From: Octopus vulgaris
Lineage: Eukaryota
DNA: 64,000 nucleotides
Reading direction: 5' to 3'
Assembly: GCA_951406725.2 (NCBI GenBank)
Contig: OX597835.1
Span: 7,874,001-7,938,000, forward strand
Position 1 is the first letter of the stretch, and the number at the start of each line of letters is the position of its first letter. The position numbers and the translations under genes were made by a program. Of the stretch, positions 8,355 to 57,225 are shown in pieces. Under the pieces are notes generated by a model. That model was not told the DNA's origin. It saw only the letters and a program-made list of their open reading frames with translations, and ran no database searches.

Positions 8355-8435
8355 TTTTTTTTCAACATGTGACCTTGTGAGCACCGCCAACAATTTTTTT
8401 CCTCTGTCTTCTCTTCTGATCTTTCCTTCTCCTTT

Positions 8436-8470
8436 GTTTCCGACGAAGAGCTCCGCTCGAAACGTTAAAC
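8436..8470 (+). ncRNA. Minimal type I hammerhead ribozyme motif in a Penelope-type short element (~8356-8575)
   Basis: gttt-CCGACGA-a-gagc(tcc)gctc-GAAA-c-GTT-aaac. Stem I gttt/aaac, stem II gagc/gctc, loopless palindromic stem III. An identical motif is at 39242-39276(-). Confidence 0.7.
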
Positions 8471-8600
8471 CCTCCTTCTTCCCTTCTTTCCTGAGCGTCC
8501 AATAATACTTTATTTGTTCCACGTCATCGCGTTGCTGTGTTTTTTTTTTGTGTTTTCTTGTTTGGATTAACTTTATATATATATATATATATATATACAT

Positions 8601-38588: not shown

Positions 38589-39241
38589 GTCTGTGTATTT
38601 GTTTACGCTCATACGCACGTTCCGGCTCTTATTGTTCATTGAATACCATCCATGTATGTATGTATATATCTGTGTATATGTGTGAGTGAATATATAGCTT
38701 AGCATTAAAACTGCAGTAACAGTTGTGTACATATTTCAATGAGTATTAAATATTGATTCTATATCTTGCAAAAAAAAAAGCAAAAAACAATACGAAACGG
38801 CCAAAAGGTAGAGGAAAATCCATAAAAGTACTTTTATACGTTATTCTGTGTGTGTTTAATCGGTGTGTGAGCCAATCAAAGGCTGTGAACAAAATGTAGT
38901 TTACTTTTTCAGAAACTCGTGAAGAAAGGTTTAGGGCCGCGTTTGCTCAGAAAACAATGAAACATTTCACTGAAATATTTTGGTTCACCTATAATACATC
39001 GAAATCAATCAAATTAAATCGAACCGAATCGAATCTGCTATTCTCAAGAGCTGTTACACAAGTCAAGTGTTAGTATAAAAGTAAGAATAATGATAAACCA
39101 AACGGTTCGAACATATGTTCGACACATATATTTATATATATATAGTTAATTCAAACGTGAACAAAGAGAAAACACAACAACGCGAGGACGTGGAACAAGT
39201 ATAGTATTATTGAACGCTCAGGAAAGAAAGAAAGACGGAGG

Positions 39242-39276
39242 GTTTAACGTTTCGAGCGGAGCTCTTCGTCGGAAAC
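39242..39276 (-). ncRNA. Minimal hammerhead motif in a Penelope-type short element (~39144-39327)
   Basis: Reverse complement is identical to the 8436-8470 motif and the flanks are homologous. Confidence 0.7.
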
Positions 39277-39326
39277 ATAGGAAAGGGAAAGATCCAAAGA
39301 AGGGAAGACGGAGGAAAAAATCGCCA

Positions 39327-39376
<50 letters not shown>

Positions 39377-39582
39377 TGGCAAAAGAATTCTACAAAATTT
39401 TTTTGCCACCCTATATTGATTAATTATGAATTTTCTGGTTAGTTCCGTAATGGAATCGGTGGCTTATATTTATTTACTGCCGATAAATTTGGCGCGAGTG
39501 CGACGATTTGAAAATTTTAGGTCAGATATTGCCGAGGTAGCAAGAGGAATGCCTCGTGAAAAATATCTGTTCCGACTTGGCT

Positions 39583-39689
39583 ATTTCTTACTGATGAGTC
39601 TAAGGGCCTATGGTGGATTGGCTTGATTTAATTTAATCAGGTTAGTTTACCATTAAACGGTAGATGAAACGGTGCATCGTCTAAGAAAT
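39583..39689 (+). ncRNA. Type I hammerhead ribozyme, copy 1 (predicted cleavage after C39681)
   Basis: Stem I atttctta/taagaaat (8 bp), CTGATGA at 39591-39597, stem II gtcta/tagat with a 19-bp extension, GAAA at 39666-39669, stem III acggt/atcgt, GUC triplet. Confidence 0.9.
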
Positions 39690-40073
39690 TACAGGGTAAA
39701 AGTTTTTCAATTTTCTCCTGGTTTACGGAATTAATGTTATTTTGCGGTTAAAGCTTTTGGCTGTTATTTCTAGTGGGTGAATGGCCTATTATGGCCGTTC
39801 CTTGATTGTGATGTTGAACGTAAAAATGGTTTATGACTATTTAATTTTTTCCTACTAGGCCGCTGGTGGCAAAAGAATTCTACAAAATTTTTTTTGCCAC
39901 CCTATATTGATTAATTATGAATTTTCTGGTTAGTTCCGTAATGGAATCGGTGGCTTATATTTATTTACTGCCGATAAATTTGGCGCGAGTGCGACGATTT
40001 GAAAATTTTAGGTCAGATATTGCCGAGGTAGCAAGAGGAATGCCTCGTGAAAAATATCTGTTCCGACTTGGCT

Positions 40074-40180
40074 ATTTCTTACTGATGAGTCTAAGGGCCT
40101 ATGGTGGATTGGCTTGATTTAATTTAATCAGGTTAGTTTACCATTAAACGGTAGATGAAACGGTGCATCGTCTAAGAAAT
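40074..40180 (+). ncRNA. Type I hammerhead ribozyme, copy 2 (predicted cleavage after C40172)
   Basis: Identical to copy 1, 491 bp downstream. Confidence 0.9.
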
Positions 40181-40402
40181 TACAGGGTAAAAGTTTTTCA
40201 ATTTTCTCCTGGTTTACGGAATTAATGTTATTTTGCGGTTAAAGCTTTTGGCTGTTATTTCTAGTGGGTGAATGGCCTATTATGGCCGTTCCTTGATTGT
40301 GATGTTGAACGTAAAAATGGTTTATGACTATTTAATTTTTTCCTACTAGGCCGCTGGTGGAAAAAGAATTCTACAAAATTTTTTTTTGCCACCCTATATT
40401 GA

Positions 40403-40448
<46 letters not shown>

Positions 40449-40449
40449 G

Positions 40450-40480
<31 letters not shown>

Positions 40481-40489
40481 GTGTGTGTG

Positions 40490-40528
<39 letters not shown>

Positions 40529-40559
40529 ATATATACGTATATATCTATATATCTATATC

Positions 40560-40603
<44 letters not shown>

Positions 40604-40606
40604 CCT

Positions 40607-40675
<69 letters not shown>

Positions 40676-55660: not shown

Positions 55661-55864
55661 AGTAGGTGAATGAATTATCCTATGTTTATCGTCAGCATGG
55701 AAAATTCGTTTAACCGAAACCTGGGTAGCAAATTCACGTCAGAAAACACAGTTGAAGCGACCTGTCAATGGTAGAAACTCCGGGTTGATGTGTAGAAATT
55801 TGTGTGTTGTATATGAATAAATGAAAGAATGGAGTCGAACGAAGATGTTAACAAAATTCCTTTA

Positions 55865-55946
55865 CTCTCGACACATGTTTCGAAGACAGCATGTTTTCAT
55901 TCCAAAGGAATAAAGGGTGCATTATGCAATCTTCTCATCAGGAAAG
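55865..55946 (-). ncRNA. Type I hammerhead ribozyme (GUC) within an element bounded by 58-bp inverted repeats (55810-56083)
   Basis: Minus strand ctttc-CTGATGA-gaaga...tcttc-GAAA-catgt-GTC-gagag. All core nucleotides are canonical. Confidence 0.85.
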
Positions 55947-56087
55947 AAAGGGAGCCTCTCTCGACAACAAGACAAACAAAAATTTCGATGATTGCCTACA
56001 AGGTAAACAAAGCGATAATCAAAGTGAGTAAAGGAATTTTGTTAACATCTTCGTTCGACTCCATTCTTTCATTTATTCATATATATA

Positions 56088-56118
<31 letters not shown>

Positions 56119-56129
56119 GGATTCGAAAT

Positions 56130-57225
56130 ATTGATCAAAGAAATCCCAGAGAGTGTATAGATTTTGTCTTGTCTTCCAGGATCTCCATTAATAGTGTCGC
56201 AAACTTTGGTGAAACTTGTTACCATTACTGTGTCTGATATTTGCAGGTACTATTGGTTATCAAAGTAGTTGTTTTCTAGTACCAGTCGTAGTCCTTCAAG
56301 TGTATATTTTGTTGTGAATCTCTTCTGAATTCTTTGTGAGTAATTCTTTATCCAAAATTCTACGACCTCTAATCCTAATCCATTGGGAATATTTAGGTAG
56401 TGACTGGTTGCATCGAAGTTAACCAGGATCGTTTCTTTATCTGCTTTTTCTTGAATATGGTTCAGGAAGTTCATTTAATCTCTGACGAAACTTGGGACCA
56501 ATCTGCACAAGGTTTTGAAAATTGTCTAGTAAATGCTTAATCGCTGGGTGCTAAATGCTAGTTGGGTTCTAAATTACGCCTTATTTTTGGCCAGATGTTT
56601 TGAGAATTTTCACATAAGTCTCGGGGTCGAGTTGCGCGATTAAAGGCGGTGCTCCAGCATAGCCGCAGTCAAATGACTGAAACAAGTAAAAAGAGTAAAA
56701 AAAGAGAGAGATATGGAACTTGCTGTTACTGATTTCTGTAGATTTATGGATTTTTGTTAGTGCATGAAAGTTACTTGTTTTTACCACAGAATTAGTGAGA
56801 TAAAACCAAATTCTTTATCATTAAGAATTTTTTTTTAGGTTCTCCGTTAATTTACCAATTTTATTCATTGTTCATCTGCATTGGCTTCTAACTTTTTTTT
56901 GTTGAAATATCGGTCATTTAGTTGTTCTAAATTTCCCTGTAATGGGTCTTGTCCATTATTACACTAGCTTCTTTTTCAGCTTCTTTAATAACTGTAGAAG
57001 AATCTTTCTTTACACATTTTCGTGCATCTTTTCTTCATTCGTAATTCTTGTTTTTATATGGTTTCTTGGAATGTTGGAAGCTGCAGATTTTTCCAGACAC
57101 ATTAAGTTTTCCATAAAGTGTTTATTGCTTCTCATTAGAGGTTTAATTCCGATTTTGTTTATCACAAGTGATGGATCTTCGTCGTGTTTCTTTTGGAAGA
57201 CAAATACTCGCAAAGGCAACAATTA
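56130..57225 (-). pseudogene. Penelope-like retroelement RT remnant
   Basis: Ordered motifs RITNEEK, FHALTKIHKS (FYxLPKIHK), ILVNFDATSHYLNIP (LVSFDVxSLYTNIP) and LVLENNYF. Frameshifted, with a SINE C tail inserted at ~56615-56705. Confidence 0.85.

Follow-up and report, generated by a model that had tools for sequence, protein, structure and literature searches.

Metazoan non-LTR retrozymes have been described as non-coding head-to-tail repeats with one type I hammerhead per unit, a low GC content, thousands of copies, a stable predicted fold and a weak helix III (PMC7229834, PMC7761336), and Penelope-like elements (PLEs) are proposed in the same reports as their mobilisers. The family described here, represented at one locus of the window (the whole 64,000-nt stretch of Octopus vulgaris DNA that was analysed), shares all of these features. 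Its unit of 490 nt exceeds the 150–450 bp given in PMC7229834 and carries a long hairpin within stem II. The initial annotation had called the family larger, a description that lapses because 491 nt falls inside the 51–972 bp given by Li, Clavereau and Pollet 2026 (10.64898/2026.07.22.740005). In the available text of PMC7229834, no account was found of insertions directed strictly at (TA)n, of a pair of fixed 3' ends or of two arms, as observed in the octopus family, and RNA and circles have been demonstrated for the retrozymes reported there, whereas for the octopus family they are predicted. Like the active retrozymes of Li et al. 2026, the window locus contains two consecutive units with a complete hammerhead; the PLE link in that study consists of co-occurrence and pLTR homology, whereas for the octopus family it comes from insertion anatomy, and no homologous pLTR was found. 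The available text of the same study describes 35 genomes with no mollusc class among them (10.64898/2026.07.22.740005). A literature search, with coverage lacking most subscription journals as well as Repbase and Dfam, returned no description of a cephalopod retrozyme, and the giant squid paper, in its accessible portion, gives just a count of 235 Hammerhead_1 hits (PMC6962438).

The EN+ PLEs of the Neptune and Hydra clades (PMC8557442, PMC11167929) resemble the octopus family in forming partial tandems with an inverted 5'-truncated copy and a tail at a single end, in favouring (TA)n, in the position of the hammerhead close to the 3' end and in the two internal RT start sites, whereas the octopus unit has no RT or GIY-YIG ORF, its tail measures about 105 nt against 30–40 bp, and its hammerhead, with a canonical core and a full stem III, precedes the ends by 131 and 236 nt. 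Chlamys elements of the non-autonomous kind, such as MRC1 (PMC8557442), are likewise non-autonomous PLE parasites with multicopy head-to-tail insertions; unlike the octopus family, the MRC1-type elements resemble autonomous families at their 3' end, and most Chlamys elements in the available account are without hammerheads. Judged by its sequence, the octopus family appears to behave like a non-autonomous PLE and to fit neither an ORF-bound pLTR nor a viroid. It bears on two questions, namely which enzyme moves animal retrozymes and what role is played by PLE hammerheads, the function of which was called unclear for EN+ PLEs by Craig et al. (PMC8557442).

The repeat unit, its ribozyme and its copies

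The initial annotation had reported a 490–491 bp unit repeated 2.1 times inside (TA)n, and TRF returned the same arrangement at 39374–40410, with a period of 491, 2.1 copies, 99% matches and a TA microsatellite on either side (Table 1). Unit 2 equals unit 1 plus a single T inside a T tract (491 against 490 bp), and both window units have an A at U102 that occurs in no other sampled insertion and represents a fixed private variant. The locus forms a single arm of 2.12 units with its 3' end at U53, and its tail contains a conserved helix junction and a hairpin, which may together be the RT loading site. Inspection by eye found no long frames in the window besides translated simple repeats; the longest ATG frame of the unit, of 66 aa, was rejected as coding because it is missing from 4 of 6 other units tested, and the Rfam miRNA matches in the window, located on TA/CA repeats, were set aside as chance.

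Table 1. Features of the retrozyme locus in window coordinates; unit positions U1–U490 are numbered on unit 1 (39375–39864).
Feature	Position	Strand	Basis or remark
(TA)n target microsatellite, 5' side	39327..39374	.	TRF period 2, 24 copies
Unit 1 (490 bp, U1–U490)	39375..39864	+	Single-armed insertion, 5'-truncated at one of the scattered points
36-nt hairpin	39375-39410		Foot is the start of unit 1
Type I hammerhead 1	39583..39689	+	Descriptor scan, Rfam
Hammerhead 1 stem I, 8 bp	39583-39590 / 39682-39689	+	
Hammerhead 1 core CUGAUGA	39591-39597	+	
Hammerhead 1 stem II, 5 bp	39598-39602 / 39661-39665	+	Carries a 44-nt inner hairpin, 39610-39653
Hammerhead 1 GAAA	39666-39669	+	
Hammerhead 1 stem-loop III, near-palindromic	39669-39680	+	Followed by GUC; predicted cut after 39681
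Predicted self-excised 491-nt monomer (linear or circular)	39682..40172	+	Fold; both-arm run-off at the same 5' end in other loci
Unit 2 (491 bp, extra T)	39865..40355	+	
Type I hammerhead 2, anatomy as hammerhead 1	40074..40180	+	CUGAUGA at 40082; predicted cut after 40172
PLE-type tail, about 105 nt	40304..40410	+	Separates the two 3' ends seen across the family, proximal at U~438 (position 40303) and distal at U~53
Partial third unit	40356..40410	+	Runs to the distal of the two fixed 3' ends (U~53), then (TA)n
(TA)n-led microsatellite tract, 3' side	40408..40671	.	TRF

One type I hammerhead per unit was detected by the descriptor scan, in agreement with the 8-bp stem I, CUGAUGA, GAAA and GUC noted initially, and no descriptor match was obtained in 5,000 dinucleotide shuffles of the unit with both strands scanned. 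Cleavage is predicted after U307, which corresponds to 39681 and 40172, and the computed interval between the two predicted cuts, 39682–40172, amounts to exactly 491 nt, as had been proposed. The suggested check against Rfam Hammerhead_1 with Infernal succeeded in part, both sites being matched (E 0.061) at only 22 bits, under the gathering score of 34, probably on account of the long insertion in stem II. Across the sampled copies, about 260–290 at each position, variation amounts to 0.1% for the 11 fixed positions of the core against 3.7% for the unit, N7 shows all four bases and H17 shows only C or A, never G; variability at N7 and H17 is a known freedom of hammerheads. The ribozyme core is under strong constraint and near-invariant, and the cleavage site contains no indels in 288 crossings. 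Two values from folding were counted against a self-cutting monomer, namely a stem III pairing probability of about 0.01 in the monomer fold and an active hammerhead fold lying 4.6 kcal/mol above the circular MFE. Since stem III is scarcely populated in the monomer and, with loop III, is near-palindromic and self-complementary (duplex −18.9 kcal/mol), two copies may be needed for cleavage, a requirement that has been reported for amphibian retrozymes (PMC7229834).

The exact cleavage-site 23-mer (GUC) has 996 copies in the genome against 0 for the reversed control; a second exact pattern has 1,693 copies, dominated by a GUA-triplet subfamily about 90% alike; a tail motif common to all subfamilies, which are 70–90% identical, has 4,060 copies; and a fourth motif has 217 copies, in units 70–81% alike. 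A sister family of 475 bp, about 72% alike, has the same layout. In the similarity search of the genome (227 contigs, 2.8 Gb), 40 of 928 candidates were scored and 236 matches obtained. About a thousand near-identical copies are spread over many contigs, and of the 24 public runs listed, 19, with four organism labels between them, contain half or more of the words of the unit, so that an assembly artefact, which had been raised as a possible explanation of the duplication, is excluded. As few-hundred-bp tandems with a type I hammerhead per unit, dispersed as dimers to multimers, with no protein-coding capacity, no LTRs and no joined PLE ORF, these repeats constitute, by the sequence-level definition, a young, multi-thousand-copy family of non-LTR retrozymes, a class that is itself already known. 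The original reading of the locus as a non-coding, multi-copy tandem repeat of retrozyme kind with type I hammerheads is upheld, the family-level evidence being far stronger than that of the single locus, and the comparison of the unit with the genome that it called for yielded thousands of copies, scattered 5' ends and covariation in a 20-unit alignment.

Insertion ends and the Penelope-like signature

The 3' ends of 150 arms from 91 loci were located at U40–66 in 73 arms, at U430–445 in 68 arms and elsewhere in 9, so that two fixed sites (U~53 and U~438), 105 nt apart, account for 141 of the 150 arms, and the 5' ends (141 arms) are scattered evenly round the unit. Removed before these arm counts were L018 and L022, which are partial views of one locus, L297 and L298, which had been selected on account of U308 ends, and a single arm truncated at the edge of its locus. 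Most fixed 3' ends (138/147) reach (TA)4 within 20 nt; L003 and L031 display, by eye, short target duplications instead of (TA)n. The arms reach 18 units, and the 56 head-to-head pairs comprise 49 with one arm per site and a junction overlap of mostly 0–5 nt, 1 with two alike and 6 in which another end is involved. Within the 49 mixed pairs, both arms exceed one unit in 19, the arm lengths correlate (rho 0.35, p 0.013), and the two 5' ends lie at most 30 nt apart in 12 (shuffle mean 6.4, p 0.02).

PLEs insert as partial tandems in (TA)n, with a truncated copy in inverted orientation and a tail at a single end (PMC8557442), and a PLE studied in vitro used two internal RT start sites, with both target strands cut and extended (PMC11167929). 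Since the fixed 3' ends, the tail, the inverted arm and the (TA)n of the octopus insertions match this anatomy, PLE machinery likely moves the family, and the Penelope-like copying suggested for the window locus thus gains from the concentration of arms at two sites, the 49 of 56 mixed pairs and the (TA)n targets. The 55-bp terminal redundancy of the locus, which had been taken to fit rolling-circle copying, loses that meaning by itself, since U53 is one of the two fixed priming sites and U1 a scattered truncation point, the overhang being a priming site combined with a chance 5' end.

In L297 and L298, both arms extend from precisely U308 to the two priming sites, over 131 nt and 231–236 nt, as expected of a cut linear monomer, and the multi-unit arms of L008 also both start at U308. 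These three loci were found by a pattern aimed at the U308 junction, and the 30 matches of its control included no such symmetric pair; symmetric junctions also occur away from the cut, at L048, L276, L296 and L232. Counted against a preferred start at the cut, enrichment of 5' ends there is not clear (4/141 in U305–312 against 2.3 expected), and the genome-wide U308 end pattern gave 28 matches against 30 for the looser control at U397, with no clear excess.

Four loci (L011, L035, L037 and L059) have one arm with many small deletions and TA-like substitutions and the other arm intact, for which error-prone synthesis and an assembly error in the palindrome are alternative explanations.

With good probability, the family is a non-autonomous retroelement that is predicted to be transcribed and whose RNA is predicted to cut itself into 491-nt monomers that would be ligated into circles and likely pasted into (TA)n by a PLE RT/GIY-YIG protein. 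Tandem read-through transcripts would be cut after U307 and the monomer closed by a host ligase, after which the PLE protein would bind the structured tail and nick a TA microsatellite. Reverse transcription would be primed by one strand at the internal U~53 and frequently by the second strand at U~438, and each RT would circle the same template for a variable distance, leaving head-to-tail arms with scattered 5' ends. The two cDNA ends would then join via 0–5 nt of microhomology into a two-armed palindrome, or a single arm would be completed, as at the window locus.

More tentatively, the mixed pairs, those with both arms longer than one unit, the correlation of arm lengths, the near 5' ends and the three loci starting at the cut hint at a PLE RT dimer acting on a single RNA circle made by the ribozyme. 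The dimer might prime both strands of the nicked (TA)n at two fixed sites within that circle, 105 nt apart, and both enzymes might then roll by strand displacement and come off at the same point, the one at which the circle is reopened by the hammerhead. If this is true, the hammerheads of EN+ PLEs would have a role in vivo, and a 491-nt ORF-free substrate would be recognised by its shape by an unrelated PLE protein. Counted against the general route via self-cut monomers and circles were the behaviour of the one purified PLE, which did not need its hammerhead in vitro (PMC11167929), and that of Xenopus retrozyme dimers, 8 of 9 of which did not cleave (10.64898/2026.07.22.740005). The available text of Frangieh et al. 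reports no reads ending at the hammerhead cut (PMC11167929). The family ties a retrozyme to PLE machinery via its ends, with some insertions starting exactly at the predicted cut, and because it is very young and intact candidate PLE proteins are encoded in the same genome, the partner, the circle and the twin-priming are directly testable.

The template of the arrays

The mean distance between units was 0.39% within an arm (300 pairs), 0.40% between the arms of an insertion (137 pairs) and 2.5% between loci (15,653 pairs), and common diagnostic alleles were mixed in 31 of 4,027 site-by-insertion cases. In the 85 insertions with repeated sites, private variants were observed in all copies (26), in one copy (130) or in some copies (17); the 26 all-copy variants occur in 15 of the 85 insertions, 11 of them coming from one rare-subfamily array, and 10 private variants, in 9 insertions, are common to both arms. 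The cleavage site is crossed at least twice by 67 of 141 arms, in samples that were picked via cleavage-site patterns and in which crossing counts are biased upward. Variants fixed across units and arms point to a one-unit bottleneck followed by re-reading, and the sequences suggest that one monomer read repeatedly, most simply a circle, explains the shared haplotypes, although at any single locus a homogeneous linear multimer might do so too.

At L265 (1896–3877, minus strand), one arm alternates two distinct haplotypes in the order A-B-A-B, a pattern expected of a heterodimeric circle, and its partner arm reads B-B. At L066 (892–9868), an 18-unit arm has variants recurring roughly every third unit, for which a trimeric template and a higher-order satellite expansion are the alternatives. 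Such patterns may represent oligomeric templates or later recombination and speak against a pure monomer model, and the 17 partly shared private variants together with L265 indicate that not every array derives from one monomer.

The partly shared variants and the periodic patterns in the long arrays L066, L265 and L272 would also suit a PLE-driven process in which the template is an uncut linear multi-unit transcript, the arrays are 5'-truncated donor copies kept uniform through conversion or unequal exchange, and hammerhead activity is no more than occasional. A purified PLE indeed took unprocessed RNA with an internal start (PMC11167929), and with 97 insertions sampled, homogeneous donors may be unseen. 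Such a linear template is nevertheless unlikely, as the all-copy private variants are fixed in all units and both arms, truncation alone would shorten the arrays with each cycle and yet the arms reach 18 units, and the ribozyme core is strongly constrained.

The unit is covered by contigs of four public runs. Three of them, guessed to be RNA, contain it whole, but multi-copy DNA would look alike, and neither strand nor ends nor circularity can be read from contigs. The one run recorded as RNA, a feces metatranscriptome, yielded a single 208-nt piece at a depth of 2.7, which is no evidence of expression.

Neighbouring elements and the monomer fold

The unit was fused to a PLE ORF in none of 300 locus records, overlapping records included. 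A PLE ORF piece was present in 27 of these records, in no case less than 233 bp from the unit, and the gap between them was occupied by a microsatellite in 26 of the 27 and, by eye, in the remaining one as well; the possibility voiced at the outset, that other copies are always attached to a Penelope ORF as a pLTR, is not what the records contain. The PLE pieces at L031, L158, L164, L187, L270 and L313, considered as parts of the unit, proved by eye to be separate neighbours. With microsatellites intervening, and with arms that traverse whole units without an ORF, likewise in four subfamilies 70–100% alike, there is very little likelihood that the unit represents a pLTR detached from a PLE that is divergent or went unseen, its tandems being pLTR partial tandems or locally expanded satellite without an RNA life of their own, even though the loci read are a sample only and 24 of 57 Xenopus retrozyme families are homologous to annotated transposons, nearly all of them PLE termini (10.64898/2026.07.22.740005).

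The search for a partner of the family brought up two young PLE families with long open frames. The GIY-YIG family search scored 150 of 6,136 candidates and led to the young PLE family of L101–L117, in which a 781-codon frame is accompanied by a 3' UTR that is long and repetitive, a degenerate motif resembling a hammerhead, a hairpin-bearing tail of about 40 nt and two 3' ends in (TA)n; this PLE, which from its linker motif we take to be Neptune-like, has no DNA match to the unit. The Hydra-type family search scored 101 of 35,884 candidates, and L356–L385 (e.g., L364 and L379) hold a very young Hydra-type PLE with 97–100% protein identity, frames of up to 717 codons, a hammerhead with C at U4 in the 3' UTR, and two 3' ends about 73 nt apart with head-to-head arms in (TA)n, an insertion pattern like that of the unit; the 717-codon PLE likewise has no DNA match to the unit, and the ATTGT at the proximal end that both have in common was discounted as too short. 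By eye, a local PLE resembles Hydra-1_Obim, and the Hydra RT motif was found at 27 places, none with a significant match to the unit. The Rfam hammerhead search, in which 73 of about 263,000 candidates were scored, returned other families, and none of the 30 loci examined matched the unit. Six short unit motifs had no match in the available part of the supplement of Craig et al. (PMC8557442). Homology of the unit to an autonomous PLE terminus was absent from the families sampled, which are a fraction of the PLE families of the genome.

The linear monomer is predicted to fold into a branched structure of −142.9 kcal/mol (z −4.4), a stability reached by none of 100 shuffles, and the circular monomer has a z of −5.8 against 40 shuffles; the minus-strand fold is much weaker (−83.7 against −138.1 kcal/mol). 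In an alignment of 20 units from three subfamilies, 98.8% of cells are paired and two-sided changes occur in 12 of 111 pairs. The consensus structure was derived from the same alignment and the two-sided changes mostly reflect one subfamily split, so covariation gives only moderate support to a monomer secondary structure that appears stable and conserved across the subfamilies. The label viroid-like, applied to the locus initially, was abandoned, as no minus-strand hammerhead core is present and the family consists of genomic DNA copies, and a viroid-like replicon with RNA-to-RNA copying and only occasional retro-integration, for which the stable fold, the covariation across the unit and the many subfamilies might speak, is exceedingly improbable in view of a minus strand lacking CUGANGA and folding much more weakly, the branched fold, and thousands of genomic copies with PLE-type ends.

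Other hammerheads were also observed near TA microsatellites. At L121–L150, TA microsatellites contain at least two more hammerhead families unrelated to the unit by BLAST; one of them is minimal, and another has a long insertion in stem II. In the window, a different short repeat at 39130–39335 (minus strand) adjoins the same (TA)n on the left; it has a minimal hammerhead-like core with C replacing U4 at 39272–39246, a second copy (86%) at 8395–8586, and matches in 42 of 435 locus records. At 55700–56100 (minus strand), an unrelated type I hammerhead, with its core at 55941 and a predicted cut near 55870, is embedded in a perfect inverted repeat of 58 bp within (TA)n and has a broken PLE RT fragment beside it at 56558–56217.
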